From the sequence record PQ306573.1: a stretch of DNA of 64,000 nucleotides; one strand, 5' to 3'. Numbering within the stretch: position 1 is the first letter of the stretch; the number at the start of each line of letters is the position of its first letter. This DNA is from Escherichia phage vB_EcoM_PTE-Eco05. Below the pieces are notes generated by a model. It was not told where the DNA came from. It made no database searches and was given only the letters and a program-made list of their open reading frames with translations. Shown here piece by piece: positions 2,581 through 19,662 of the stretch. A program made the translations under genes and the position numbers.

Positions 2581-5292
2581 ATGAAAGAATTTTACTTAAC
2601 GGTTGAACAGATTGGTGATTCAATTTTTGAACGTTACATCGATTCTAATGGCCGTGAACGTACTCGTGAAGTAGAATATAAACCATCACTGTTTGCTCAT
2701 TGTCCAGAAAGTCAGGCTACGAAATATTTCGATATCTACGGTAAGCCGTGTACTCGTAAGTTGTTCGCTAATATGCGTGCTGCCTCCCAATGGATTAAAC
2801 GCATGGAAGATATCGGACTTGAAGCACTTGGCATGGACGATTTCAAATTGGCGTATTTGACTGACACTTATAACTATGAAATCAAATACGACCATACAAA
2901 AATTCGTGTGGCTAACTTCGACATCGAAGTAACATCTCCGGACGGGTTCCCTGAGCCGTCACAAGCAAAACATCCGATTGATGCTATCACCCATTATGAC
3001 TCAATTGACGACAGGTTCTACGTATTTGATCTATTGAATTCTCCATATGGTAATGTAGAAGAATGGTCTATTGAAATCGCTGCTAAGCTTCAAGAACAAG
3101 GCGGTGATGAAGTTCCATCCGAAATTATCGATAAAATCATTTATATGCCGTTCGATAACGAAAAAGAATTGTTGATGGAATATCTCAACTTCTGGCAACA
3201 GAAAACTCCTGTCATTTTGACTGGATGGAACGTTGAGTCATTTGATATTCCATATGTGTATAACCGAATCAAGAATATTTTTGGCGAATCTACTGCGAAA
3301 CGTTTATCACCACATCGTAAAACTCGTGTTAAAGTTATCGAAAACATGTATGGTTCTCGTGAAATCATTACATTGTTCGGTATCTCTGTTCTTGATTACA
3401 TTGACCTTTACAAAAAATTCTCTTTTACCAATCAACCGTCGTATTCTCTGGATTACATTTCAGAATTTGAATTGAACGTCGGTAAACTGAAATACGACGG
3501 CCCTATTTCTAAGCTTCGTGAAAGCAATCACCAACGATATATTTCTTATAACATTATCGACGTGTATCGTGTATTGCAAATTGATGCTAAGCGTCAGTTC
3601 ATCAACTTGAGTTTGGACATGGGTTATTATGCTAAGATACAGATTCAATCTGTGTTTAGCCCAATTAAAACATGGGATGCTATTATCTTTAATAGCCTTA
3701 AAGAGCAGAACAAGGTGATTCCACAAGGTCGTTCTCACCCGGTTCAACCTTATCCTGGCGCTTTTGTTAAGGAACCTATTCCAAATCGATACAAATATGT
3801 AATGAGTTTCGACCTTACATCTCTGTATCCAAGTATTATTCGCCAAGTGAATATTAGCCCGGAAACAATAGCAGGAACGTTTAAAGTAGCTCCACTGCAT
3901 GATTATATTAACGCAATCGCTGAACGTCCTTCAGATGTGTACAGTTGTTCTCCTAACGGCATGATGTATTATAAAGACCGTGATGGTGTAGTTCCAACTG
4001 AAATCACTAAGGTCTTTAATCAACGTAAAGAACATAAAGGTTACATGCTTGCAGCTCAACGTAATGGTGAAATAATTAAAGAGGCCTTACATAATCCTAA
4101 TCTTTCTGTTGACGAACCATTAGATGTTGATTATCGTTTCGACTTCAGTGATGAGATTAAAGAAAAGATTAAAAAGTTGTCTGCTAAATCTCTTAATGAA
4201 ATGTTGTTTAGAGCTCAACGTACTGAAGTTGCAGGTATGACTGCACAGATTAACCGTAAATTGCTCATCAACTCACTTTATGGTGCACTCGGCAACGTTT
4301 GGTTCCGTTATTACGATTTGCGTAATGCTACTGCAATCACAACATTTGGTCAAATGGCTTTACAGTGGATTGAACGTAAAGTTAATGAATATCTGAATGA
4401 AGTTTGTGGTACAGAAGGTGAAGCTTTCGTTCTTTATGGTGATACAGACTCTATTTACGTATCTGCTGATAAAATTATCGATAAGGTTGGTGAATCTAAA
4501 TTCCGTGATACCAACCATTGGGTAGACTTCTTAGATAAGTTTGCACGTGAACGTATGGAACCAGCTATTGATAGAGGTTTCCGTGAAATGTGTGAATACA
4601 TGAACAATAAACAACACTTAATGTTCATGGACCGAGAAGCTATCGCTGGGCCTCCGCTTGGTTCTAAAGGTATTGGCGGATTTTGGACTGGTAAGAAACG
4701 TTATGCATTAAACGTGTGGGATATGGAAGGTACTCGTTACGCTGAGCCTAAACTCAAAATCATGGGTCTAGAGACTCAGAAATCTTCGACTCCTAAAGCA
4801 GTACAGAAAGCTCTTAAAGAATGTATTCGTCGTATGCTTCAAGAAGGTGAAGAATCATTACAAGAATATTTTAAAGAGTTTGAAAAAGAATTCCGTCAAT
4901 TGAATTATATTAGCATCGCGTCGGTATCTTCTGCGAATAACATTGCTAAATACGACGTAGGTGGATTCCCGGGTCCTAAATGCCCGTTCCATATTCGTGG
5001 AATTCTGACGTATAACCGAGCTATCAAAGGTAATATTGATGCACCACAAGTTGTAGAAGGTGAAAAAGTATATGTTCTGCCTTTACGTGAAGGAAACCCA
5101 TTCGGTGATAAATGTATCGCATGGCCTTCTGGTACTGAAATCACAGATTTAATTAAAGACGATGTACTTCATTGGATGGACTACACTGTTCTCCTTGAGA
5201 AGACATTTATTAAACCGCTTGAAGGATTCACATCAGCAGCTAAACTCGATTACGAGAAGAAAGCATCTCTGTTCGATATGTTTGATTTTTGA
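2581..5292 (+). CDS. 43: DNA polymerase gp43 (family B, with 3'-5' exonuclease)
   Basis: 903 aa; exo motif FDIEV, polymerase motifs SLYPSII and YGDTDS. Confidence 0.95.
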   Translation: MKEFYLTVEQIGDSIFERYIDSNGRERTREVEYKPSLFAHCPESQATKYFDIYGKPCTRKLFANMRAASQWIKRMEDIGLEALGMDDFKLAYLTDTYNYEIKYDHTKIRVANFDIEVTSPDGFPEPSQAKHPIDAITHYDSIDDRFYVFDLLNSPYGNVEEWSIEIAAKLQEQGGDEVPSEIIDKIIYMPFDNEKELLMEYLNFWQQKTPVILTGWNVESFDIPYVYNRIKNIFGESTAKRLSPHRKTRVKVIENMYGSREIITLFGISVLDYIDLYKKFSFTNQPSYSLDYISEFELNVGKLKYDGPISKLRESNHQRYISYNIIDVYRVLQIDAKRQFINLSLDMGYYAKIQIQSVFSPIKTWDAIIFNSLKEQNKVIPQGRSHPVQPYPGAFVKEPIPNRYKYVMSFDLTSLYPSIIRQVNISPETIAGTFKVAPLHDYINAIAERPSDVYSCSPNGMMYYKDRDGVVPTEITKVFNQRKEHKGYMLAAQRNGEIIKEALHNPNLSVDEPLDVDYRFDFSDEIKEKIKKLSAKSLNEMLFRAQRTEVAGMTAQINRKLLINSLYGALGNVWFRYYDLRNATAITTFGQMALQWIERKVNEYLNEVCGTEGEAFVLYGDTDSIYVSADKIIDKVGESKFRDTNHWVDFLDKFARERMEPAIDRGFREMCEYMNNKQHLMFMDREAIAGPPLGSKGIGGFWTGKKRYALNVWDMEGTRYAEPKLKIMGLETQKSSTPKAVQKALKECIRRMLQEGEESLQEYFKEFEKEFRQLNYISIASVSSANNIAKYDVGGFPGPKCPFHIRGILTYNRAIKGNIDAPQVVEGEKVYVLPLREGNPFGDKCIAWPSGTEITDLIKDDVLHWMDYTVLLEKTFIKPLEGFTSAAKLDYEKKASLFDMFDF

Positions 5293-5332: not shown

Positions 5333-5968
5333 ATGAAAACTACACCAATCACTATCGCTATTGACGCAATCGTAAAACAAGCTTCATCTCTTGCCACTAT
5401 GGCTAAAGTAATTAGTCAAAACCCTGCTCGGTATAATGCTATTCTTGAAACTCTTCGTCGCCCTGGACTGAGTAATTATGAAAGTCGTGTAATTATTACA
5501 GGTGTTGGTAAGAACGCTAATATCGCAACTAAAGCTTCCGAGACTTTTGCTTCACTAGGTATTCCTAGCATGTATTTGAACACTGGGCATTATTCTCATG
5601 GTGACGCAGGATTTATTGCACCTAATGATGTATTAGTTCACATCAGCCGTTCTGGTAAGACTGAAGAAATGATAGGTGTTGCTAAACATCTTCGTATGAT
5701 TCGTCCTCAGGTTAAACAGATTCTGTTACATTGTAACCCTGACATTCCACAAGAATACGAAGCTCTTTTTGATTATACGTTCTGTACTGGTATCGCGGTA
5801 GAAGTTGACGAGAACTCTTTAGCTCCGACAATGTCTACTACATTGTTGTTAGCGCTTATCGATACGTTCGCTATCAACCTTTCGTCTGAACGTGGATTTA
5901 CCTCTAATGATTTCCTTAAGTTCCATCCAGGCGGTGCACTAGGTGCCATGTTACGAGGCGAACAATGA
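5333..5968 (+). CDS. SIS-domain sugar-phosphate isomerase (KpsF/GutQ arabinose-5-phosphate isomerase-like)
   Basis: 211 aa; SIS-type Rossmann pattern (VIITGVGKN, HISRSGKTEE) and C-terminal HPGGALG typical of KpsF/GutQ-type isomerases. Confidence 0.7.
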   Translation: MKTTPITIAIDAIVKQASSLATMAKVISQNPARYNAILETLRRPGLSNYESRVIITGVGKNANIATKASETFASLGIPSMYLNTGHYSHGDAGFIAPNDVLVHISRSGKTEEMIGVAKHLRMIRPQVKQILLHCNPDIPQEYEALFDYTFCTGIAVEVDENSLAPTMSTTLLLALIDTFAINLSSERGFTSNDFLKFHPGGALGAMLRGEQ

Positions 5969-6108
5969 AAGCAATATCAATAGGACTTTTACTATTGATG
6001 CTTGTCATGACTATCTACTGGAGCTTAACGGCTCCAGTAATGATTCCAACACTTGTAATTGGATGGATTATGATTGGACTACAAGCAAAGTATGAATGCT
6101 TTAACTAG
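5965..6108 (+). CDS. Small hydrophobic membrane protein (47 aa, two predicted TM segments)
   Basis: ATG overlaps upstream stop (ATGA); highly hydrophobic MKAISIGLLLLMLVMTIYW...; below the 60-aa cutoff of the ORF track. Confidence 0.35.
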   Translation: MKAISIGLLLLMLVMTIYWSLTAPVMIPTLVIGWIMIGLQAKYECFN

Positions 6109-6149
6109 AATAGTGTACAATACTCCTACTTACCAATGAGGACTTCAAC

Positions 6150-7835
6150 ATGAAAAAAGCTGTTATTCTTGGTGCTGGACTGGCAACTCGTTTGTATCCA
6201 ATAACGCATCATATTCCTAAGGTGCTTGTTAACTATAAACAAGACACTATTCTGAGCAATTTGTATACAATTTATTCTGACCTTGGCGCAGATGAAATTA
6301 TTGTAGTAGTTCATTCAAAATTTGCTGAAACTGTTCGAGCTTATTGTGAGCAAGAAGGGTTCAATGTGACTATTCGTACAGTTGATGAAGCGTATGGTTC
6401 TGCTTATGCTCTTGCTAAATTACACAAAGATTTAGACGGCCATAATGTAATTGTTAACTGGTGTGATATTATTCCCGATTTTGGTTCATGGTCTTGGAAT
6501 GTTAACGCAATCTATGTTAAGGGTGATGAATGTCGGTATAATTTCGATGGTGAAAATATCACTAATGTAGGTGAAACAGGCGGTAATGTTGTAGGAATTT
6601 ATCAGTTCAAAGACTGGGAATTCTATATGGGTTCTACCGATGAGGAAATTCATGAATACTGCAAAGGACGTGATTTCGTAGAATTCCTTTACGGCAGCAC
6701 ATTCAATAAATCAGAGCTTATGAATCTAATTGATTTAGGTGATATGCCTAAACTTGAAAAGGCCCATGAAGTTCGTGAACTGAACCGTAGTTTTAATGCA
6801 GTTGAAATTGGCGAAGAAACTGTAACTAAATTCGCATTAACCGAACAGGGTCGAGCTCTTCAGAAAGATGAGATTTCGTGGTATTTGAAAGTGAAATCAG
6901 ATTCAGTTCCTCAGTTAGTTTCTGTTAATGAAAATAACTTTGAAATGGAACGCATTAAAGGTAAGCCGGCATTTGAATATATTAAATCAAAATCAAGTCT
7001 TGCTCGTCCACAAATTATTGATGCAATTTTAGATGCACTGAAATTCAGCACAGACACTTATTTTGTAAGTCCTGAAACTGTTCGTCGTGATTTCACTAAA
7101 GAATTCTATACGAAAGTTATTGATCGTTGTGAAAGCATTCAACCATTGATTGATTCATTTGGTAAAATCACACATGTGAACTACACTAAGATTGGACGTC
7201 TGAAGCCAATGCTGAAACAAGCTTTAGAACACCTTATTCGTTATCATAACCGTTCTCAGGGACAGTACTCTGTTATTCATGGTGACCCGAACTTCAGTAA
7301 TACTATGATTACTGATAACGGCGAAGTCAAGTTTATCGACCCTCGTGGATATTTTGGCGAAACCAAGATTTACGGGCCAAAATTGTATGATGAAGCTAAA
7401 GTGCTTTACGCTGTTTCAGGTTATGATGAATTCAATGCTAATCCGACCTGGGGACAGTTTACTATTGATGAAACAACTTGTAATGTGACTATTAACATCA
7501 ATCCATTAGTTTACAAATATGGAAAGATGAGTTCGTTTAACGAGTATCATCATTTGGCAGTGGCAATTATCTGGATTGCATTAGGTGGTTATTTCAAGAA
7601 TAATCCACTTAAAGCGGTAGCCGCATATTATAAAGGTATGGAACTTCTGACTAAGCAATTACGTAATATGGGCCGTGTACTTCAAGACGGCTCTATTAGT
7701 TATGACGTAGCAGAACCTGTAACGGCTACTCTGATTACAAAAAATCCTGGTAAATGGGTACTAACTGATAAAGAAACTGGTGTTTCCTATCGTCCAATCG
7801 GTGGCGATATCACTCATCAATGGGAACGAATCTAA
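6150..7835 (+). CDS. Bifunctional sugar-1-phosphate nucleotidyltransferase (N-terminal) / APH-choline-kinase-fold sugar kinase (C-terminal)
   Basis: 561 aa; N-terminal MKKAVILGAGLATRLYPIT..PK.LV nucleotidyltransferase signature; C-terminal HGDPNFSNTMI...FIDPRGYFG kinase catalytic loop (Brenner HGD..N plus D). Confidence 0.7.
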   Translation: MKKAVILGAGLATRLYPITHHIPKVLVNYKQDTILSNLYTIYSDLGADEIIVVVHSKFAETVRAYCEQEGFNVTIRTVDEAYGSAYALAKLHKDLDGHNVIVNWCDIIPDFGSWSWNVNAIYVKGDECRYNFDGENITNVGETGGNVVGIYQFKDWEFYMGSTDEEIHEYCKGRDFVEFLYGSTFNKSELMNLIDLGDMPKLEKAHEVRELNRSFNAVEIGEETVTKFALTEQGRALQKDEISWYLKVKSDSVPQLVSVNENNFEMERIKGKPAFEYIKSKSSLARPQIIDAILDALKFSTDTYFVSPETVRRDFTKEFYTKVIDRCESIQPLIDSFGKITHVNYTKIGRLKPMLKQALEHLIRYHNRSQGQYSVIHGDPNFSNTMITDNGEVKFIDPRGYFGETKIYGPKLYDEAKVLYAVSGYDEFNANPTWGQFTIDETTCNVTININPLVYKYGKMSSFNEYHHLAVAIIWIALGGYFKNNPLKAVAAYYKGMELLTKQLRNMGRVLQDGSISYDVAEPVTATLITKNPGKWVLTDKETGVSYRPIGGDITHQWERI

Positions 7836-8221
7836 TGCACCGTGTAGAAAACATGCTTAATCTTTGTTTTGATGTCGATGATTGTATAACAGAGTGGAAT
7901 AACAATCGTGATTACGTGAACTTCAAACCAGACGTCGAAATGGTGTCTGCCATTAATGCTCTGTATGATGCAGGGCATACCATAACGCTTTACACTGCTC
8001 GCGGTATGAAGTCAGTAGGTCCTGGTCGTATAGCAATTGACATTCTCCCAAGTCTGATTCAGAACTTGGCAAACATTGGCTTGAAGTACCATAATTTGCT
8101 AACACATAAACCAGTATATGATTGGATTATCGACGACAAAGCTATGCGTCCTGACGAATTCAAAGCTCTTATGAATAAAGGCGAATTCGAAACATTTAAA
8201 TCGTATAAACCGAATCTATAA
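7820..8221 (+). CDS. HAD-superfamily phosphatase (KdsC-like small sugar-phosphate phosphatase)
   Basis: N-terminal FDVDDCIT (DxDx[TV] motif I of HAD enzymes); start may instead be the ATG at 7835 overlapping the upstream stop (TAATG). Confidence 0.6.
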   Translation: MGTNLMHRVENMLNLCFDVDDCITEWNNNRDYVNFKPDVEMVSAINALYDAGHTITLYTARGMKSVGPGRIAIDILPSLIQNLANIGLKYHNLLTHKPVYDWIIDDKAMRPDEFKALMNKGEFETFKSYKPNL

Positions 8222-8269
8222 TAATTTAAGTAAGACCTGCAAAAAAACCATCGCATCAATTAACGCGAG

Positions 8270-9439
8270 ATGCAAAAAATGAATACTTTTAAAATCGGAA
8301 CGAATTTTGATTTAGCTCTTCTTGATAAAATCGTAGAGCTCAATAAAACTTATCCTAATAGCTTGATAAATGAAGTATACGGCTCTACAAGAGAAATGGC
8401 TTTTGTAGCAGCCAGACCTGATTTTAGGCTTCCTGACGTTGACAAAAAGATGTTAGAAGATTACGTTAAACGTTGTAACGAATTAGGTATTTGCTTTAAC
8501 TATACACTCAACACGATAAATCCTGGTTCAAAAAGAGAACTAGTTGAGTGGAAGAAGAAAGCTATTCAGGATTATGTTCAGTATCTTTGGTCAATAGGCG
8601 TATGGCGTATTACTATCGCTAACCCTGTTGTTATGGAAATTGTTCGTGAAGTCAATAAAGACATTGAGATTGAAGTTTCAACAATTCTACATGTCGATGC
8701 TGTAACTCAAATCAAATACTTGCATGACCAGTATAATATCAAAAAGGTCTGCTGTGGAATTCATAAGAACCGTTCAGTTTCTTTCCTGAAGCGTGCAGCA
8801 GAGTTTTGCAATAAGAACAATATAATATTTGAAGTTCTTGTAAATGAGTTCTGTTCTAATGCTGGTAAAGGGTATACAACACATTGTAGCTATCGTGACT
8901 CTTGCTATATTTTCCATAGTACTGATGTTACAGCTGATGATGCTAAATCCTTAAACGGATATCCTATGCAGCACTGTATTAAAGCTCGTGATACAGACCC
9001 ATTTAACTGGTTGAGAACTCGTTTTGTTCGTCCTCAAGATTTGAAACTTTATAATGATATTGGTATCACTCAATTCAAAGTTTCAGGACGTACAGGTAGC
9101 ACAGACTACATTTTGAAAGTTCTTGAAGCATACGCTTCTGAAAAGTTTGAAGGTAATTTGTTAGAACTGTGGAAGCCTTTAGAGACTATTTTCACTCTTG
9201 AAAACGAAACTGAGTTTTCACATACAGTAAATATTGAAACCTCTTTGTTAGATGGCTTTTTAGAAAAAAGGTGGTTCAGACATCCAGATTTCGATTGTGC
9301 TAATGAAATCTGCGGGACGACGTGTACATATTGTGAAAGATATTATAAACGTCAATTATCTAAAAACGGGTTAGCAGAAAACTCTATATCTATTATTGAT
9401 ATAACTAACTCTGATGACGCTTTGAGGTACCCGGAATGA
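8270..9439 (+). CDS. Cys-rich protein, possibly a TIM-barrel Fe-S enzyme (U32-peptidase-family-like); function unknown
   Basis: 389 aa; alternating beta/alpha-like N-terminal pattern, conserved Cys clusters (EFCSNAGKGYTTHCSYRDSC; CANEICGTTCTYCERYY); family assignment tentative. Confidence 0.5.
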   Translation: MQKMNTFKIGTNFDLALLDKIVELNKTYPNSLINEVYGSTREMAFVAARPDFRLPDVDKKMLEDYVKRCNELGICFNYTLNTINPGSKRELVEWKKKAIQDYVQYLWSIGVWRITIANPVVMEIVREVNKDIEIEVSTILHVDAVTQIKYLHDQYNIKKVCCGIHKNRSVSFLKRAAEFCNKNNIIFEVLVNEFCSNAGKGYTTHCSYRDSCYIFHSTDVTADDAKSLNGYPMQHCIKARDTDPFNWLRTRFVRPQDLKLYNDIGITQFKVSGRTGSTDYILKVLEAYASEKFEGNLLELWKPLETIFTLENETEFSHTVNIETSLLDGFLEKRWFRHPDFDCANEICGTTCTYCERYYKRQLSKNGLAENSISIIDITNSDDALRYPE

Positions 9440-9675
9440 TTTCTAGAAAAACTTTTAACCACCAACTTAATGAAGAGATTTTGACTATGAAACTGAACAC
9501 TAACGAACAAATTCTTAAAAGGGCCCTGATGGGCCTGTTTGAAACTAAAGCGGCTAAAGTGATTAAAGAACCTGTTCAATTGGAATACTACGCTGATGCA
9601 TTTCTTCATAGTGTTCTTGGAAGTATCGGTGCTGAAGCTTTACGTTATATCAACATTGTCAAGAAATTCAAATAA
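9436..9675 (+). CDS. Hypothetical protein (79 aa)
   Basis: ATG overlaps upstream stop (ATGA); in-operon position. Confidence 0.45.
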   Translation: MISRKTFNHQLNEEILTMKLNTNEQILKRALMGLFETKAAKVIKEPVQLEYYADAFLHSVLGSIGAEALRYINIVKKFK

Positions 9676-9717: not shown

Positions 9718-10434
9718 ATGGGAAAACATAACACAATGAAATATATCAAAGCCGCAGATTTTCAAGCCGCATTTAAAGCAGTCAATCGTGAAATTTTAGA
9801 AAACCCGGAATTCGTAACTGATTCTCGTATTGGACGTTGTAATGAAATTGGGTCTATGACAGTAGTTGTTGACACTCCATCATCATTCAAAATGACCGAC
9901 CCACGTATTAACCGCATCTCTTATGAATATGCCGAAGACTTCTGGAAGTTTATGATTTCTGGTGGTACCAACGCAGAAGAAGCGTTTAAGGCATATCCTA
10001 ATGTCGCTAAATTTATTTCTAAACCAAAATCAGATGTTTTGCCGGCGAACTTCAACACTTTCTATGGTCCTCGCATTGCGGCCCAATTACCAGCTCTTCT
10101 AAAAGAACTTAAAGAGAAGCCTAACTCTCGAAGAGTTGTGTTCCAAATTCTAGAAAGTTCTGATCAGGCTTTGCTTGATTCAGACGAAACGCTTGAATAT
10201 CCATGTACTGACTCAGTGACTTATTATATCCGTGATGGTAAGCTTTATACCCACTGTCATATGCGTTCTCAGAACTGCGCTGTTGTTATGCAGTTGGATT
10301 TTTATCTCCAAGGAAAATTACTTCATTATATCGCTAACGAATGCGGTGTAGAAGTTGGTGATTATACTCATACCATGGTAAGTGCCCATGTGTTTGAACG
10401 TGATTTTGATTATGTTAAAGGATTCCTTGACTAA
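9718..10434 (+). CDS. 42: dCMP hydroxymethylase-like enzyme (thymidylate synthase superfamily), gp42 position
   Basis: 238 aa; TS-fold catalytic region YPCTDSVTYYIRDGKLYTHCHMRSQN (active-site Cys, RSxD-like); located between gene 43 block and uvsX as T4 gene 42. Confidence 0.7.
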   Translation: MGKHNTMKYIKAADFQAAFKAVNREILENPEFVTDSRIGRCNEIGSMTVVVDTPSSFKMTDPRINRISYEYAEDFWKFMISGGTNAEEAFKAYPNVAKFISKPKSDVLPANFNTFYGPRIAAQLPALLKELKEKPNSRRVVFQILESSDQALLDSDETLEYPCTDSVTYYIRDGKLYTHCHMRSQNCAVVMQLDFYLQGKLLHYIANECGVEVGDYTHTMVSAHVFERDFDYVKGFLD

Positions 10435-11981: not shown

Positions 11982-13154
11982 ATGTCTGATTTAAAATCTC
12001 GTCTGATTAAAGCTTCTACTTCTAAAATGACTGCAGACTTGACTAAGTCTAAGCTGTTTAATAATCGTGATGAAGTCCCTACTCGTATTCCGATGTTGAA
12101 TATTGCACTAGGTGGTGCACTGAATGCCGGGTTGCAATCAGGCTTAACTATTTTTGCTGCTCCTTCTAAACACTTTAAAACATTGTTTGGGCTGACCATG
12201 GTTGCAGCATATATGAAGAAATATAAAGATGCAATCTGTTTGTTTTATGACTCAGAATTCGGTGCTTCAGAATCTTATTTTCGTTCAATGGGTGTTGATT
12301 TAGACCGTGTAGTTCATACTCCGATTCAATCTGTCGAACAACTTAAAGTTGATATGACTAATCAGCTTGACGCGATTGAACGCGGTGATAAAGTTATTAT
12401 CTTTATCGATTCAATCGGTAATACTGCATCTAAGAAAGAAACCGAAGATGCGTTGAACGAGAAAGTTGTAGGTGATATGTCTCGTGCTAAGGCACTTAAA
12501 TCTCTGTTCCGCATTGTGACTCCTTATCTGACTATTAAAGATATTCCATGTGTTGCAATCAACCATACAGCAATGGAAATCGGCGGATTGTATCCTAAAG
12601 AGATTATGGGCGGTGGTACCGGTATTCTTTATTCTGCCAACACGGTATTTTTTATCTCTAAACGTCAGGTTAAAGAAGGTACAGAATTGACCGGTTATGA
12701 CTTCACGTTGAAAGCAGAAAAATCTCGTACAGTTAAAGAGAAATCTACTTTCCCAATCACGGTTAATTTTGATGGCGGTATTGACCCATTCAGTGGCTTG
12801 TTAGAAATGGCAACTGAAATTGGATTTGTTGTTAAGCCTAAAGCCGGTTGGTATGCTCGCGAATTCCTTGACGAAGAAACAGGTGAAATGATTCGTGAAG
12901 AAAAATCATGGCGTGCTAAAGCTACTGATTGTGTAGAATTCTGGGGACCTTTGTTTAAACACAAACCTTTCCGAGATGCAATTGAAACTAAATATAAACT
13001 AGGTGCTATCTCTTCTATTAAAGAAGTTGATGACGCTGTTAACGACCTTATTAATTGCAAAGCAACAACTAAAGTTCCGGTTAAAACTTCTGATGCTCCG
13101 TCTGCAGCAGATATAGAAAACGACCTTGACGAAATGGAAGATTTCGATGAATAA
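11982..13154 (+). CDS. uvsX: Recombinase UvsX (RecA/Rad51 family)
   Basis: 390 aa; RecA-fold P-loop GAPSKHFKT, acidic C-terminal tail. Confidence 0.92.
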   Translation: MSDLKSRLIKASTSKMTADLTKSKLFNNRDEVPTRIPMLNIALGGALNAGLQSGLTIFAAPSKHFKTLFGLTMVAAYMKKYKDAICLFYDSEFGASESYFRSMGVDLDRVVHTPIQSVEQLKVDMTNQLDAIERGDKVIIFIDSIGNTASKKETEDALNEKVVGDMSRAKALKSLFRIVTPYLTIKDIPCVAINHTAMEIGGLYPKEIMGGGTGILYSANTVFFISKRQVKEGTELTGYDFTLKAEKSRTVKEKSTFPITVNFDGGIDPFSGLLEMATEIGFVVKPKAGWYAREFLDEETGEMIREEKSWRAKATDCVEFWGPLFKHKPFRDAIETKYKLGAISSIKEVDDAVNDLINCKATTKVPVKTSDAPSAADIENDLDEMEDFDE

Positions 13155-13497: not shown

Positions 13498-14940
13498 GTG
13501 GTAGAAATTATTTTGTCTCATCTAGTATACGACCAGGCTTATTTTTCTAAGGTCTGGCCTTATATGGATTCTGAGTATTTTGAGCGTGGACCGGCAAAAA
13601 ACGTCTTTAAAATTATAAAGAGCCACGTTAACGAATATAATGCAATGCCATCTATCAATGCATTAAAGGTGGCTTTAGATAACAGTTCTTTAACTGAAGC
13701 CGAATATAAAGGAACTTCAGACCTAATTGAAAAATTGGCTGATACTCCTGAAGACCACGAATGGTTGGTTAAAGAAACTGAGAAATATGTCCAGCAAAAA
13801 GCGATGTATAATGCTACGTCCAAAATCATTGAGATTCAGTCTAATGCTGAACTACCTCCAGAACAACGTAACAAGAAAATGCCTGACGTAGGAGCTATTC
13901 CTGATATTATGCGTCAAGCACTTTCAATTTCGTTTGATAGTTATGTTGGACATGACTGGATGGAAGACTACGAAGCACGCTGGCTTTCTTATCTAAATAA
14001 AGCACGTAAGGTCCCGTTCAAATTAAACATTCTGAATAAAATCACTAAAGGTGGTGCTGAAACCGGTACACTAAACGTTTTAATGGCAGGTGTTAACGTC
14101 GGTAAATCTTTAGGCCTTTGTTCACTTGCTGCAGATTATCTTCAAACAGGTCATAATGTTCTTTATATTTCCATGGAAATGGCTGAAGAAGTTTGTGCTA
14201 AGCGTATAGATGCAAACATGCTTGACGTATCACTCGATGATATCGATGATGGTAACGTATCTTATGCTGAATATAAAGCCAAGATGGAAAAATGGCGTTC
14301 AAAATCCACATTAGGACGTTTAGTAGTTAAACAGTATCCTACTGGTGGAGCTAATGCTAATACATTTCGTGCATTGCTTAATGAGTTAAAACTTAAGAAG
14401 AACTTTGTGCCATCTGTAATCATGGTTGATTACTTAGGTATTTGTGGGTCTTGTCGTATCAGAGTTTACACTGAAAATAGCTACACATTAGTTAAAGCTA
14501 TCGCAGAAGAACTTCGTGCATTAGCAGTAGAATCTGAAACAGTTCTATGGACTGCAGCTCAAGTAGGACGTGCAGCATGGGATGCTTCAGACATGAACAT
14601 GAGTGATATTGCAGAATCAGCAGGTTTACCAGCAACGGCAGATTTCATGTTGGCCGTAATTGAAACCGAAGAACTTGCACAAGCTGAACAACAACTTATC
14701 AAACAAATCAAATCACGATACGGTGATAAGAATAAGTGGAATAAATTCCTGATGGGTGTACGTAAAGGCAACCAGAAATGGATTGAGATTGAGCAAGAAG
14801 GCATGAACACACCTAACACAGTAAATGAAAACGCAGGTGCTCAGATGCGTCAGGCAGAGGTGAATCGTACGGAACGCGTAGGTAAAGCCAAAGCAACACG
14901 TGCTGACCTAGATAGCTTAGCCAATGAGTTAAAATTTTAA
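13498..14940 (+). CDS. 41: Replicative DNA helicase gp41 (DnaB-like)
   Basis: 480 aa; GTG start after aaggag RBS; Walker A GVNVGKSLGL; DnaB-family motifs. Confidence 0.92.
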   Translation: MVEIILSHLVYDQAYFSKVWPYMDSEYFERGPAKNVFKIIKSHVNEYNAMPSINALKVALDNSSLTEAEYKGTSDLIEKLADTPEDHEWLVKETEKYVQQKAMYNATSKIIEIQSNAELPPEQRNKKMPDVGAIPDIMRQALSISFDSYVGHDWMEDYEARWLSYLNKARKVPFKLNILNKITKGGAETGTLNVLMAGVNVGKSLGLCSLAADYLQTGHNVLYISMEMAEEVCAKRIDANMLDVSLDDIDDGNVSYAEYKAKMEKWRSKSTLGRLVVKQYPTGGANANTFRALLNELKLKKNFVPSVIMVDYLGICGSCRIRVYTENSYTLVKAIAEELRALAVESETVLWTAAQVGRAAWDASDMNMSDIAESAGLPATADFMLAVIETEELAQAEQQLIKQIKSRYGDKNKWNKFLMGVRKGNQKWIEIEQEGMNTPNTVNENAGAQMRQAEVNRTERVGKAKATRADLDSLANELKF

Positions 14941-15028: not shown

Positions 15029-15403
15029 ATGAATATGTCTCAAGCAATTTTTACTGCAATCACCGAAAACACAACTGTTGAAGTAGTTTCTCCGCTGGCA
15101 ACCTACGTTATTCTTGCTCCTAAAACTATTGTATCTCGTATGGAAAACATGGGCAAACGTATCGTACAAATTGTTGGAGCCGGAAATCAAAAACTTGATT
15201 ATCTGCGAACCATCAAAGCTTATGAACATTTCCAGCTCGAAAAAGGTTCTCCTATCCAGGTAGAACTCGTAAATGGTGATATCGTTCGAGCAATGTTCCA
15301 TCATTTCTATGCATTGAATGACCCATCTAAAGCGGTTCGTTTGATTGCATATGACGCAAACCAAAACGAAATCAACGCAGATATATCTAAATTACGTTTT
15401 TAA
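15029..15403 (+). CDS. Hypothetical protein (124 aa)
   Basis: ATG with agaggaaaa RBS. Confidence 0.55.
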   Translation: MNMSQAIFTAITENTTVEVVSPLATYVILAPKTIVSRMENMGKRIVQIVGAGNQKLDYLRTIKAYEHFQLEKGSPIQVELVNGDIVRAMFHHFYALNDPSKAVRLIAYDANQNEINADISKLRF

Positions 15404-15436
15404 GTTTACTTCTCCAGTAGTTGTGTTATTATAGAC
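15404..15436 (+). promoter_or_regulatory. Early-type promoter (GTTTAC, spacer, TATTATAGACC)
   Basis: Part of a recurring GTTTAC(A), about 17 bp, TAtAGaCCTATCA architecture; embedded in a 14-bp inverted repeat. Confidence 0.5.
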
Positions 15437-15458
15437 CTATCAACTACTGGAGAACAAA

Positions 15459-15776
15459 ATGAAAACCATCGATTGTAAAGCAGAATTTAAGATTTTTTAT
15501 CACGGTTCAAGTAGTTCAGCTAACATCGAAAACATGCTTTGTCCTCCTGAAGAAACAGGAGTTCTGTCTGAAACTGGACGTAAGAAAAACTTGGATCGTG
15601 TATTCTTTACTGAAGATATCGGTTTAGCAAAGATTTATGCAGGACGAGCAGCACGCTCTTATGGAGGTGAACCACGTCTCTATCGAGTAATTTCTCCGGT
15701 AGATGTAGTTCAAATGAATGATACTAAAGGTGCTACAGTTTATCACGCTGAATGGGCATTTTGCGAGGAAATATGA
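15459..15776 (+). CDS. Hypothetical protein (105 aa)
   Basis: ATG 5 nt after ggagaa RBS. Confidence 0.55.
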   Translation: MKTIDCKAEFKIFYHGSSSSANIENMLCPPEETGVLSETGRKKNLDRVFFTEDIGLAKIYAGRAARSYGGEPRLYRVISPVDVVQMNDTKGATVYHAEWAFCEEI

Positions 15777-15961
15777 GCAAATTAACTAAAGTTACTTTTA
15801 TTGGCTGGTTTAAAAGCGGTGAGATGTTCACTAAAGATATCATGTTATCAGGTGATCGTGAAGAAATCGAGTGGGTTGCGGTACAACTTGCTGAAGTGAA
15901 CAACGCATTAGTTAAAGCATTTGTTAATGACGAGAAAGTTTTCGAAGCAGATTTTCGATAA
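15773..15961 (+). CDS. Hypothetical protein (62 aa)
   Basis: Track ORF 15752..15961 trimmed to the ATG overlapping the upstream stop, with gaggaa RBS. Confidence 0.45.
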   Translation: MSKLTKVTFIGWFKSGEMFTKDIMLSGDREEIEWVAVQLAEVNNALVKAFVNDEKVFEADFR

Positions 15962-15974
15962 TTTTAAAATAACT

Positions 15975-16006
15975 GTTTACAAGCCCCACATACTGTGTTA
16001 CTATCT
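15975..16006 (+). promoter_or_regulatory. Early-type promoter (GTTTACA, spacer, TTACTAT)
   Basis: GTTTACA 52 nt upstream of ORF 16033. Confidence 0.45.
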
Positions 16007-16032
16007 TTCTATCAACTACAGAGGAAATTGAA

Positions 16033-16401
16033 ATGAAAAAATTAATCGCTTTAGCAATGGTATTTGGATTAACCGGATGTGGTGCTCATGGCTTTATCCC
16101 TAATAACGTTGGCCAACTGATTTACAATCCGAATGTTAAACAATATGAACAACCTAAAGTTGAAGTGGAAGACCCGGTTACTGTAGGTAATCGAATGATT
16201 CAAGCTGATGCTCATGCTCAACGTTATCGTGATTCTGATACTGTAGCATTGTCAAAAGAACAACGCGTTAAAGAACATTGTCTACAGGCTACTGAAATCG
16301 CATTCATTCGCTATGTTGAAACAACTGGTAAAGAGCCTACCCAGAAACAAATCGCGAATAACTACGTCCAGTGTATTGAACGTTTAAACAAATTTAATTA
16401 A
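16033..16401 (+). CDS. Predicted lipoprotein (122 aa)
   Basis: Signal peptide with lipobox LTGC (MKKLIALAMVFGLTGCG). Confidence 0.6.
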   Translation: MKKLIALAMVFGLTGCGAHGFIPNNVGQLIYNPNVKQYEQPKVEVEDPVTVGNRMIQADAHAQRYRDSDTVALSKEQRVKEHCLQATEIAFIRYVETTGKEPTQKQIANNYVQCIERLNKFN

Positions 16402-16404
16402 TTG

Positions 16405-16440
16405 GTTTACACCAAAGTTAAAATAAGATACTATAAACAT
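16405..16440 (+). promoter_or_regulatory. Early-type promoter (GTTTACA, spacer, TACTATAAA)
   Basis: GTTTACA and -10-like element upstream of ORF 16463. Confidence 0.45.
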
Positions 16441-16462
16441 AACAAATCAAGAGGAAATTAAC

Positions 16463-16711
16463 ATGGAATTATTCGTAGCTAGTTCAGTAGCAGTTTTAAT
16501 CGCAGGTATTGGTTCAATCATCATTTACATGTTGCCTTGGGTAATCGCACTTATTCGTGGCACAAAAAGCACAACAGCAATCTTCTTTGTATCTTTGCTC
16601 TTTAACTGGACGATGATTGGTTGGATTGGAACTTTAATTTGGTCTATCGTTGCCGAAAAGAAATCTGCTCAGCAGCCTCAACAAGTAATTATTATTCGCG
16701 AAAAAGAATAA
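16463..16711 (+). CDS. Small inner-membrane protein (82 aa, two predicted TM helices)
   Basis: Hydrophobic segments VAVLIAGIGSIIIYMLPWVIALI and IFFVSLLFNWTMIGWIGTLIWSIV. Confidence 0.55.
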   Translation: MELFVASSVAVLIAGIGSIIIYMLPWVIALIRGTKSTTAIFFVSLLFNWTMIGWIGTLIWSIVAEKKSAQQPQQVIIIREKE

Positions 16712-16715
16712 ACTT

Positions 16716-16750
16716 GTTTACATTATAGATGGACTATAGTATAGTAGTCC
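16716..16750 (+). promoter_or_regulatory. Early-type promoter (GTTTACA, spacer, TATAGTAGTCC) overlapping palindrome GGACTA/TAGTCC
   Basis: Seen directly; same extended -10 block recurs at about 36781, 37293 and 57015. Confidence 0.5.
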
Positions 16751-16774
16751 TATCAAATCAACTAAGGAGTTAAA

Positions 16775-17068
16775 ATGAAAAAGTTATCATTGGCAGCAAT
16801 CTTACTTGCAGTATCATGTGCACCGGCTCCAGTTACGGCAGGTTATGATAAAGACCTCTGTGAGTGGTCAATGACTGCAAATCAAGAAGATGTTGAACAA
16901 CAAATCTTCTCTGATATCATGAACATCACTAAACGAGACCGTCCTAATATGGTTAATAAAGTTGTTGAACAACTTAAGTCTGGCGGTATCATGCAGTACA
17001 ACTATGTTTTGTATTGTGACCCTAATTTCGATAACAAAGATATCGTAACCGAAATCACAGGTGAATAA
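16775..17068 (+). CDS. sp: Secreted periplasmic protein, Spackle (sp)-like superinfection exclusion factor
   Basis: 97 aa with cleavable signal peptide (MKKLSLAAILLAVSCAPAPVTA); size and position between 41 and 61 match T4 sp; identity from memory, not verified. Confidence 0.55.
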   Translation: MKKLSLAAILLAVSCAPAPVTAGYDKDLCEWSMTANQEDVEQQIFSDIMNITKRDRPNMVNKVVEQLKSGGIMQYNYVLYCDPNFDNKDIVTEITGE

Positions 17069-17069
17069 T

Positions 17070-17720
17070 ATGATTTATTACATGCACAAAAACGCACCAT
17101 TTAAATATGGTAAATTTCCTAATGCACAATGTTATAATATAACGCCGAATGAAAATAATAACGGATACCATATTGGTGTAATTTTTGTAATTGTTAAAGA
17201 TAACGAAATTGTTGCCTGGGCAGATTTTAAAGGTACAACATATGATGTTAATCCTGTGCCTTTCACATATTACAATATAATGGATTTGGCATATGATTAT
17301 AATTGGTTTAATCATGACACGTTGGCTCATATTGAAGGTGTAGGATTTGACATCTCTTATTCTAGCTATTCATTATGTCCTATGAGCCGAGCTCACGGTA
17401 AAGATGTATCATATCTTTCAATTCGGAAACGTGTAAACTTCAAACGCAGTACAGAGTATGTTGGTGGACTCTTTGTTAAAGATAATAAAATAACCCGTAT
17501 TAGTTATCCTTTAAGTGTAGGTCAAAAAGATGTTGATGTTGATTTAGACTTAACTGAAAGTAACATTAATCGTATTGCTTCTGTATATTTTGATATCGAT
17601 GAAAAAATTGTAGTGTGTGGATACGAATTACCACCTGAAGAAAAGGCTGAAACAATTGAAGTCGAATTAGAAATTTCTGTTGATGACCAAATATTTAATG
17701 CATTTATGAATCGAGGTTAA
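17070..17720 (+). CDS. Hypothetical protein (216 aa)
   Basis: Track ORF starts at a GTG at 17061; ATG at 17070 follows aggtga RBS. Confidence 0.5.
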   Translation: MIYYMHKNAPFKYGKFPNAQCYNITPNENNNGYHIGVIFVIVKDNEIVAWADFKGTTYDVNPVPFTYYNIMDLAYDYNWFNHDTLAHIEGVGFDISYSSYSLCPMSRAHGKDVSYLSIRKRVNFKRSTEYVGGLFVKDNKITRISYPLSVGQKDVDVDLDLTESNINRIASVYFDIDEKIVVCGYELPPEEKAETIEVELEISVDDQIFNAFMNRG

Positions 17721-17938: not shown

Positions 17939-18406
17939 ATGGGTATTATTAACACTGCAATAGATTCAGTTTATGCATATAAGTTTATTCGACTAATGCA
18001 AAAACCTTTTACAGAATGGAAAGCGTACGAAGCCAAAATAATCGACGAACGTGGAAGTGTTCTTAAACGTCCTTCTACTCCTGAAGAGAAAGCGGCTTAT
18101 ACACCTTTTCATGCTTCAGTTCGTTCAATGAAGCGAATGATGAGCACTGTTCCGGGTCTTAATGGAATGGCCTCAATGATGTCTGCTTGGAGTGCTGTAG
18201 CTTCACGCTATAACATTACTGAAGAACAACAGAAAGAAATATTTAAAGAACTCCCTTTATTTGAGGATATGGTTGCTGGTGATTCAGGCGGCAGTCCTCA
18301 AGTTATTGCATCAGGAACAACTACAGGTGCAGTCGTAAATAAAGGTCCAGAACAAATTCCTTCCAAGAAAAGAAAGCGAATTAAAGTAAATATTAATAAG
18401 TTGTGA
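17939..18406 (+). CDS. Hypothetical protein (155 aa)
   Basis: Track ORF 17912..18406 trimmed to the ATG preceded by strong RBS caggaggtacct. Confidence 0.5.
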   Translation: MGIINTAIDSVYAYKFIRLMQKPFTEWKAYEAKIIDERGSVLKRPSTPEEKAAYTPFHASVRSMKRMMSTVPGLNGMASMMSAWSAVASRYNITEEQQKEIFKELPLFEDMVAGDSGGSPQVIASGTTTGAVVNKGPEQIPSKKRKRIKVNINKL

Positions 18407-18445: not shown

Positions 18446-19468
18446 ATGGCTGAATGGATAGATAATGAATTTGCTTATCGTGCGTTTTCTCACCTACCTC
18501 GTTTTAGACAAATCAATAATTCAAGCACATTTAAATTAACATTTCGTTGTCCAGTTTGTGGCGACTCCCAGACAGATGCAATGAAAGCTCGCGGTTGGTA
18601 TTATGGCGGTACTCCTGGTAATGTACATTGCTATAACTGTCAATACCACAATACAATTTCCGGATACTTAAAGGAGTATGATGAAGAGCTTTATCGCGAA
18701 TATCTAATGGAAGTTCGTAAAGAAAAAGCTAGAATGGAACCAAAGATTGAAAAGGTTCCTGAACATAAACCAGAACCGGAGAAAAAGACTATAAATTCTT
18801 TGCCGTCTTGTTCTCGTCTGGACAAGTTGCCTGAAGAGCATCCTATTGTGAAATATGTTAAGTCTCGGTGTATTCCTAAAGAATCATGGAACAGATTATG
18901 GTTCACATTAGAATGGCCTAAATTGGTCAACAAGATTCAACCTGGTACGTATAAGAAAGAGATTCCCGAACCACGTTTAGTGATTCCTATTTTTAATAAA
19001 GATGGGAAGGCCGAGTCATTCCAAGGACGTGCACTTCGTAAAGATGCTCCTCAGAAATATATCACTATTAAAGCGTTTGAGTCTGCAACAAAAATTTATG
19101 GTGTTGAACGTGTTAAGGAAGGGGACGTCTGGGTAATGGAAGGCCCTATTGATAGTTTATTCATACCAAATGCAATCGCTATTACAGGCGGCTCGATAGA
19201 TTTAGATGTGGTACCATTTAAAGAACGTCGGGTATGGGTAATGGATAACGAACCTAGGCATCCGGATACTATAGCTCGCATGAAGCGATTAGTTGATGCA
19301 GGCGAACGTGTCATGTTCTGGGACCGAGCTCCATGGAGATCAAAGGATGTGAACGATATGGTAATGAAAGAAAATGCAACACCACAAGAAATTTTAGAAT
19401 ATATGAAACAGAATATTTCAAGTGGGTTGCATGCTAAAATGAGATTATCTCGTTATTCGAAGATTTAA
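18446..19468 (+). CDS. 61: DNA primase gp61
   Basis: 340 aa; N-terminal zinc ribbon CPVCGD...CYNCQYH; Toprim-like core; position after gene 41 region. Confidence 0.88.
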   Translation: MAEWIDNEFAYRAFSHLPRFRQINNSSTFKLTFRCPVCGDSQTDAMKARGWYYGGTPGNVHCYNCQYHNTISGYLKEYDEELYREYLMEVRKEKARMEPKIEKVPEHKPEPEKKTINSLPSCSRLDKLPEEHPIVKYVKSRCIPKESWNRLWFTLEWPKLVNKIQPGTYKKEIPEPRLVIPIFNKDGKAESFQGRALRKDAPQKYITIKAFESATKIYGVERVKEGDVWVMEGPIDSLFIPNAIAITGGSIDLDVVPFKERRVWVMDNEPRHPDTIARMKRLVDAGERVMFWDRAPWRSKDVNDMVMKENATPQEILEYMKQNISSGLHAKMRLSRYSKI

Positions 19469-19662
19469 ACAAGCCCTATAATAGCAAAGGCTAAATCAAC
19501 TACAGTATCCAATGGAACAGAAGGAACTATAATACCATGGGCAACTAACAATGGTGCAATCCCGAAGTTCCATGAAATAATGCCACCTACAACTATTGCA
19601 GCGATAGCAGTTTTCTTTTTATTGCCTTTAATAGCGTTGATTAACGATGGAAGTTTAAACAT
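19465..19662 (-). CDS. Small hydrophobic membrane protein (65 aa) on the opposite strand
   Basis: Strong RBS aaggagat 6 nt upstream on the minus strand; hydrophobic sequence. Confidence 0.45.
   Translation of the reverse strand: MFKLPSLINAIKGNKKKTAIAAIVVGGIISWNFGIAPLLVAHGIIVPSVPLDTVVDLAFAIIGLV

Follow-up and report, generated by a model that had tools for sequence, protein, structure and literature searches.

Orthologues of the T4 genes imm.1, imm and sp, each with a predicted early promoter, lie side by side between the helicase and primase genes of a Mosigvirus (RB69-type) phage

Which genes are the three small open reading frames (ORFs) that stand one after another between the helicase and primase genes of Escherichia phage vB_EcoM_PTE-Eco05 (PQ306573.1), and do they form a functional unit? 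In the 64,000-nt stretch that we analyzed (hereafter, the window), the initial annotation had described a lipobox lipoprotein, a two-span membrane protein and a signal-peptide protein resembling Spackle, each with its own early promoter, and had read them as a superinfection-exclusion or envelope-remodeling cassette. The coordinates of the three consecutive ORFs proved exact, and all three lie on the + strand (Table 1). We concluded, with a probability that we put at about 0.93, that they are the Mosigvirus (RB69-type) orthologues of T4 imm.1, imm and sp, with their own early promoters, and that Sp and Imm serve in superinfection exclusion. Gene identity, conservation of the Sp–gp5 interface on both partners, promoter motifs and synteny rest on the present analysis; what Sp and Imm do biochemically is carried over by analogy from work on T4.

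Table 1. Features of the imm.1–imm–sp locus and its surroundings in the window.
Feature	Position	Strand	Length or motif	Match or basis	Location
gene 43	2581-5292				
43–42 interval	5333-9675				between genes 43 and 42
gene 42	9718-10434				
uvsX	11982-13154				upstream of block; then gene 40
gp41 helicase	13498-14940				upstream of block; then two small ORFs, then dmd
small early ORF	15029-15403			RB69ORF041c/phrog_10668	
small early ORF	15459-15776			RB69ORF040c/phrog_2110	
dmd	15773-15961			Pfam Dmd, 3e-19	upstream of imm.1
imm.1 early promoter	15975..16004	+	GTTTACA, 17 nt, TACTAT	RB69 Pe:19761	
imm.1 (ORF1)	16033-16401	+	122 aa	ORF listing and direct reading	
imm early promoter	16405..16434	+	GTTTACA, 17 nt, TACTAT	RB69 Pe:19331	
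imm (ORF2)	16463-16711	+	82 aa	ORF listing and direct reading	
sp early promoter	16716..16745	+	GTTTACA, 17 nt, TATAGT	RB69 Pe:19020	
sp (gene 61.3, ORF3)	16775-17068	+	97 aa	ORF listing and direct reading	
61.2/AdfA, anti-DarT factor	17070-17720			Pfam AdfA, 5e-119	downstream of sp
single ORF, gp61.1-like C-terminal part	17939-18406		155 aa		
gp61 primase	18446-19468				downstream; two small ORFs between AdfA and primase
hydrophobic ORF	19465-19662	-	65 aa	RB69ORF029w	just past primase

A 3.6-kb region containing the block was 98.1–98.6% identical to many Mosigvirus genomes, including phages AV116 and mogra (98.6%) and O157 typing phages; 152 records spanned at least 80% of this query in the nucleotide comparison. 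The records of these relatives carry the taxonomy Straboviridae, Tevenvirinae, Mosigvirus, and RB69, the type phage, has the same block. In the RB69 RefSeq record the genes at the equivalent site are named imm.1, imm and sp, and the Imm.1, Imm and Sp proteins of the window each differ from their RB69 counterparts by one residue. The block occurs at 95% protein identity or more in 154 phage records, with homologues in 656–807 records, and this conservation at the sequence level takes it far beyond chance. It is also an already known block, annotated in RB69, ordinary and widely conserved for this phage group. All three ORFs scored above the curated Pfam cutoffs and matched PHROG families, and NCBIfam profiles gave no match for any of the three proteins. 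Identity to the T4 proteins was 33% for Imm.1, 65% for Imm and 66% for Sp.

ORF3, which had been called Spackle-like, is by its sequence a true Spackle orthologue. It matched Pfam T4_Spackle (PF25676) at 145 bits (cutoff 27, E = 1e-42) over residues 1–96 of 96, phrog_1586 (spackle periplasmic) at 3e-42, and the solved Spackle structures 6x6o (E = 1.4e-39, residues 1–97) and 7cn6 in the PDB; identity to T4 Sp rose to 72% in the mature part. At the N-terminus, an MKK n-region leads into a hydrophobic core, and residues 20–26 read VTA|GYDK. N-terminal sequencing showed that T4 Sp loses its first 22 residues (Kanamaru et al. 2020, PMC7650644). ORF3 has the identical site, and a cut after residue 22 would leave a predicted mature start of GYDKDLCEW. 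Our calls of signal peptides and lipoboxes in this study were based on sequence rules and on homology to this experimentally processed protein.

Conservation extended to the inhibitor's contact surface. In T4, Sp touches the gp5 lysozyme through Ser32, Met33, Thr34, Ala35, Gln37 and Asn76, and Cys29–Cys81 form a disulfide (Shi et al. 2020, PMC7677548). ORF3 keeps C29, S32, M33, T34, A35, Q37, N76 and C81, all identical to T4 Sp. Gene 5 lies outside the window, and the RB69 reference gp5 was used instead. This protein is 78% identical to T4 gp5 and keeps the basic Spackle-binding residues R181, R182, R187, K189, R312, K321 and R326, together with G322. The conservation of the Sp contact residues and of the gp5 surface suggests that the inhibitor–target pair is intact in this lineage. 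Sp would be exported by the Sec route with its 22-residue signal cut before GYDK, and the mature, helical protein of 75 residues would bind the gp5 lysozyme domain 1:1 at the tail tip of later T-even phages, as well as any free gp5 that reaches the periplasm. Gp5 held in this way could not digest peptidoglycan, which would prevent both lysis from without and penetration by the tail tube. Whether Sp acts in exclusion is a matter of debate. Superinfection exclusion is the role for which Shi et al. (PMC7677548) argued; Kanamaru et al. (PMC7650644) found that overexpressed Sp did not reduce T4 titre, and argued that its main role is to neutralize free gp5. The latter result makes 'envelope protection' as apt a term for Sp as 'exclusion'.

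ORF2 is Imm, the other canonical superinfection-exclusion protein of T4, as judged from its sequence. It matched Pfam Imm_superinfect (PF14373) at 57.2 bits (cutoff 27.9) and phrog_1039 (immunity to superinfection) at 1e-30, and aligned with T4 Imm over its full length (83 columns, E = 2e-36). Kyte-Doolittle analysis found two hydrophobic spans, at about residues 3–31 and 38–63, with RGTK between them, in line with the two transmembrane segments first noted. Passages of PMC7677548 and PMC6832632 present Imm and Sp as the two classical exclusion functions of T4 (Cornett 1974; Lu & Henning 1994, as cited there). Imm is described as residing in the plasma membrane and acting by a mechanism that is still poorly understood (PMC6832632), and it was among the host-protective matches of a 2025 accessory-gene screen (PMC12373910). 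By analogy with T4, Imm would insert into the inner membrane by its two spans and stop the DNA of a secondary phage from crossing that membrane, so that the DNA would be left in the periplasm and degraded there.

The lipoprotein, ORF1, is the T4 Imm.1 homologue and belongs to a very small family. It scored 38.2 bits (cutoff 27) against Pfam DUF5481 (PF17578), its sole PHROG match was phrog_1754 (6e-29, annotated as unknown function), and it aligned with T4 Imm.1 at E = 2e-18. A word-indexed protein search with ORF1 returned three matches. An alignment query and an exhaustive representative search confirmed that the family is small: the latter covered 1.84 billion proteins and found seven representatives at 50% identity. 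A scan of IMG/VR yielded seven loci, all T4- or RB69-type. In the phage collection, Imm.1 had 656 records, comprising 502 from Tequatrovirus (at least 95% identical to T4) and 154 from Mosigvirus (at least 95% identical to the window), with 33% identity between the two groups. RefSeq names T4 imm.1 (NC_000866, 9637-10014) an 'iduronate sulfatase', a name that several other phage records have taken over; we rejected it, as the only family match was DUF5481 and NCBIfam gave none. Some records label Imm.1 'immunity', a name given by adjacency. Searches of the available literature for imm.1 and for DUF5481 turned up neither a relevant paper nor experimental support for the protein.

The N-terminus of ORF1 reads MKK-LIALAMVFG-LTGC, with an MKK n-region, a hydrophobic core and a lipobox whose cysteine is Cys16, followed by Gly at +2; the lipoprotein call thus held under our sequence rules. 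In E. coli, the Lol rule sends lipoproteins with Gly at +2 to the outer membrane. Imm.1 is therefore predicted to be exported, lipid-anchored at Cys16 and placed in the outer membrane. Every family member that we examined had an export signal of either the lipobox or the SPase-I type. Most have a lipobox (LAGC, LTGC, LVGC or TTGC), and the cysteine is kept in the T4-type protein and in two metagenomic types (P0004 and P0005). In two further relatives (P0002 and P0010) the signal is of the SPase-I type and the lipidated cysteine is absent, which suggests that the family can do without a lipid anchor. Other conserved features are a YNPNVK motif after the signal and a cysteine pair, C83/C114 in window numbering. 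An AlphaFold2 model built from a 10-sequence alignment had a mean pLDDT of 65 and was confident only at residues 75–120. It showed disorder at 17–47 and helices at 48–70, 75–98 and 104–120, of which only the last two were confident. According to this model, Imm.1 may consist of an extended tether of about 30 residues carrying YNPNVK and a small helical head, probably closed by a C83–C114 disulfide. Foldseek found no PDB match at E < 0.001 for this model of moderate confidence, and against BFVD it matched only its own family, so that no function could be assigned from the fold.

We then considered the possibility that ORF1 is a spurious or mis-started frame; this reading could draw on the literature search without experimental evidence for the protein and on the moderate model confidence, and it is effectively refuted by conservation, as the frame is intact in 656 phage genomes from two clades that are 33% identical at the protein level, its signal, cysteine pair and YNPNVK are conserved, its Pfam match lies above the cutoff, and both a separate promoter and, 8 nt upstream, a Shine-Dalgarno sequence (GAGG) precede the frame.

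The initial annotation had given each gene its own early promoter, and at the motif level two sources agreed with it: our motif scan and a published prediction for RB69. A generic sigma-70 scan found TTTACA-17-TACTAT at 15976 and 16406, and TTTACA-17-TATAGT at 16717. A stricter T4-early motif, GTTTAC[AT]-N16-18-TAnnnT, occurred 16 times on the + strand of the window and once on the - strand, against about one expected from shuffles. Five of the 16 + strand motifs fall between gp41 and sp, each directly upstream of a gene. These five match one-to-one the RB69 promoters Pe:20971, Pe:20537, Pe:19761, Pe:19331 and Pe:19020, predicted in supplementary file 3 of Nolan et al. 2006 (PMC1524935); the three early promoters of the block are thus already known as RB69 predictions since 2006. 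The imm.1 promoter region is identical to that of RB69 except for one base. Genes imm.1, imm and sp would each be read from their own sigma-70/Alt-type early promoter, and with separate promoters of this kind their products are expected within the first minutes of infection. The promoter before the second of the small ORFs upstream of dmd (15405-15459) lies inside a 19-nt inverted repeat that is 89% complementary, and its region has a 33-nt segment, at 76% identity, in common with the imm.1 promoter region (15994-16026; repeat D1). This arrangement resembles the promoter/stem-loop cassettes that are thought to drive modular shuffling in T4-type phages.

Gene order was then compared across lineages. 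In T4 the order is 43-imm.1-imm-42, and dmd-61.4-sp-61.2 lies about 6 kb away. Two diverged metagenomic lineages (P0010 and P0004) share the 43-imm.1-imm-42 order with T4, and we infer that this is probably the ancestral site. RB69 has the order dmd-61.4-imm.1-imm-sp-61.2, and the window has the same order minus 61.4. In T4, RB69 and the two metagenomic lineages alike, imm.1 is directly upstream of imm on the same strand. The gap between the two genes measures 61 nt in the window; it is shorter in T4 (11 nt) and in two metagenomic lineages (7 and 10 nt). The pair thus appears, from gene order, to have been relocated as a unit beside sp in Mosigvirus. Our literature search found no paper that discusses this move, which is plain in public annotation, and an early comparative paper on RB69 makes no mention of imm or sp. 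The 43–42 interval holds DNA-arabinosylation genes here and imm.1-imm in T4. In the window, SIS-domain, nucleotidyl-transferase and U32-like genes occupy it, and its nucleotidyl-transferase ORF (561 aa) equals in length RB69 ORF53_52c as corrected in the arabinosyl-hmC study (PMC6024577).

Several further observations concern the interval between genes 41 and 61. Gene 61.4, found in both RB69 and T4, is cleanly deleted in the window (15961-16033, compared with 2298-2510 of the RB69 locus, L011). T4 gp61.4, which occupies the equivalent slot in T4, was tried as a relative of Imm or Imm.1, and no similarity was found. The two small early ORFs between gp41 and dmd are conserved, have their own early promoters and lack a Pfam match; the second overlaps the start of dmd by 4 nt. 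Between AdfA and the primase, the window has one ORF with a gp61.1-like C-terminal part where the RB69 RefSeq record (L011 4477-4943) has two, ORF032c and 61.1. This split goes back to a 1-nt gap in GAGAAAGC of the RB69 record, which reflects either a sequencing error in that reference, like the documented one in ORF053c/052c, or a real frameshift. The ORF just past the primase lies on the - strand of an otherwise + strand early region. As the known counter-defense genes dmd and 61.2/AdfA flank the block, the 41–61 interval can be regarded as a dense host-interaction island.

Do the three genes work together? The reading as an exclusion cassette was essentially right, with caveats. Imm and Spackle are T4 exclusion proteins; any such role for the lipoprotein, Imm.1, is speculative. 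In T4, imm and sp lie about 6 kb apart. That separation makes their adjacency here a lineage-specific juxtaposition of independently promoted genes, with no obligate operon.

The strongest rival reading, to which we give slightly less than even odds, is that there is no functional cassette: adjacency would be a by-product of shuffled, promoter-bearing early modules, and Imm.1 would have a role unrelated to exclusion, for example in periplasmic stress, in lysis timing or in countering an envelope-acting host defense. Several of the observations above fit this reading, namely the distant imm.1-imm site of T4 and of two metagenomic lineages, the promoter at each gene, the sequence that promoter cassettes share (repeat D1 and the inverted repeat at the 15405 promoter), indels that set close relatives apart (the missing 61.4 is one), and neighbors, Dmd and AdfA, that are unrelated counter-defense genes. 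Against it, all three products act in the envelope, and imm.1 and imm moved as a pair and are adjacent in every lineage that has both, which suggests at least co-selection of that pair.

How tightly Imm.1 is tied to Imm bears on the same question. Record counts for Imm.1 coincide with the identity bands of Imm, which implies that, within the phage collection, every record with Imm.1 also has Imm. About 150 records in that collection have Imm without Imm.1, for example Gaprivervirus VR26. Moon-type lipoproteins of 146 aa occupy the same slot upstream of imm, and one Moon-like lineage has the lipoprotein with imm absent. Profile comparison of the Moon-type with the T4/RB69-type Imm.1 aligned little beyond the signal peptide; pairwise comparison with the P0004 and P0005 types gave E = 7e-5 and 8e-4, with a post-signal segment in common. 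The Moon-type proteins are thus likely, but not securely, distant Imm.1 homologues on sequence grounds. Taken together, VR26, the Moon-like lineage, the relatives that lack the lipidated cysteine and the match of Imm in the accessory-gene screen argue that Imm.1 is no obligate partner of Imm.

A second rival holds that Imm.1 is a receptor-masking lipoprotein, like T5 Llp or lambdoid Cor, that blocks adsorption by kin and shields progeny from cell debris. Imm.1 has the right profile for such a protein: it is small, early, a lipoprotein with a predicted outer-membrane location, and adjoins two exclusion genes. It also diverges fastest, as its T4–RB69 identity is half that of Imm and Sp and lower still relative to that of gp5. 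However, Imm.1 is at least 95% identical to the T4 protein in all 502 Tequatrovirus records, T2 included. T2 uses FadL/OmpF as its receptor and T4 uses OmpC, and near-identity despite different receptors makes an Llp-like role unlikely. In addition, the P0002 and P0010 relatives would be soluble periplasmic proteins with no lipid anchor, and neither the sequence and PHROG searches nor the fold comparison, the last with a model of moderate confidence, revealed a resemblance to Llp or Cor. To our knowledge, T-even exclusion leaves secondary adsorption unblocked. We therefore rejected receptor masking, and consider it very improbable.

Our best guess for Imm.1, a speculative one, is that it is an accessory envelope-side factor that may act with or alongside Imm. 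A stronger version, which we offer tentatively and consider rather doubtful, is that Imm.1 might be a third component of T-even exclusion or envelope protection, usually anchored in the outer membrane, with the extended YNPNVK segment engaging either Imm or the incoming tail tip. This proposal is compatible with the presence of Imm in all 656 genomes that have Imm.1, with the joint relocation of the two genes, with an export signal throughout the family, and with searches that returned neither a fold relative nor literature. If it were true, the Mosigvirus rearrangement would have gathered outer-membrane, periplasmic/peptidoglycan and inner-membrane factors in one 1-kb block, and a third exclusion player would be relevant to the design of cocktails of T-even phages, where mutual exclusion limits co-infection. 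For genome annotation the locus carries little weight, because the RB69 reference already names its genes, and they are conserved across hundreds of sequenced phages. Its interest lies in Imm.1 (DUF5481), a conserved, exported protein that has traveled with imm since before the T4–RB69 split and for which the literature search returned none.

Comparison with known systems places each protein closest to its T4 namesake. Spackle of T4 (gp61.3; PF25676; PDB 6X6O, 6XC0/6XC1 and 7CN6/7CN7) is 97 aa long, as is ORF3; the two share the cleavage site, the Cys29/Cys81 pair, the gp5-contact residues and the downstream neighbor (61.2/AdfA), and differ in 28% of mature residues and in the upstream neighbor, which is 61.4 in T4 and imm here. 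T4 Imm (83 aa, compared with 82 aa here) aligns end to end with ORF2; both have two hydrophobic spans joined by an RG(T/S)KS loop, and the C-terminal QVIIIREKE is identical. The T4 gene lies between genes 43 and 42, immediately after imm.1, whereas imm here lies between dmd and sp, at a greater distance from imm.1 and with an early promoter of its own. T4 Imm.1 (RB69p037 in RB69) has in common with ORF1 the lipobox, YNPNVK, the C-terminal cysteine pair and the slot directly upstream of imm; in contrast, the extra Cys32/Cys44 pair of the T4 protein is absent here and the tether is shorter. T5 Llp and lambdoid Cor resemble Imm.1 as small, early phage lipoproteins suspected of excluding kin, but no sequence or fold similarity between them was detected; Imm.1 stays the same across receptor specificities, and some of its relatives lack the lipid anchor.
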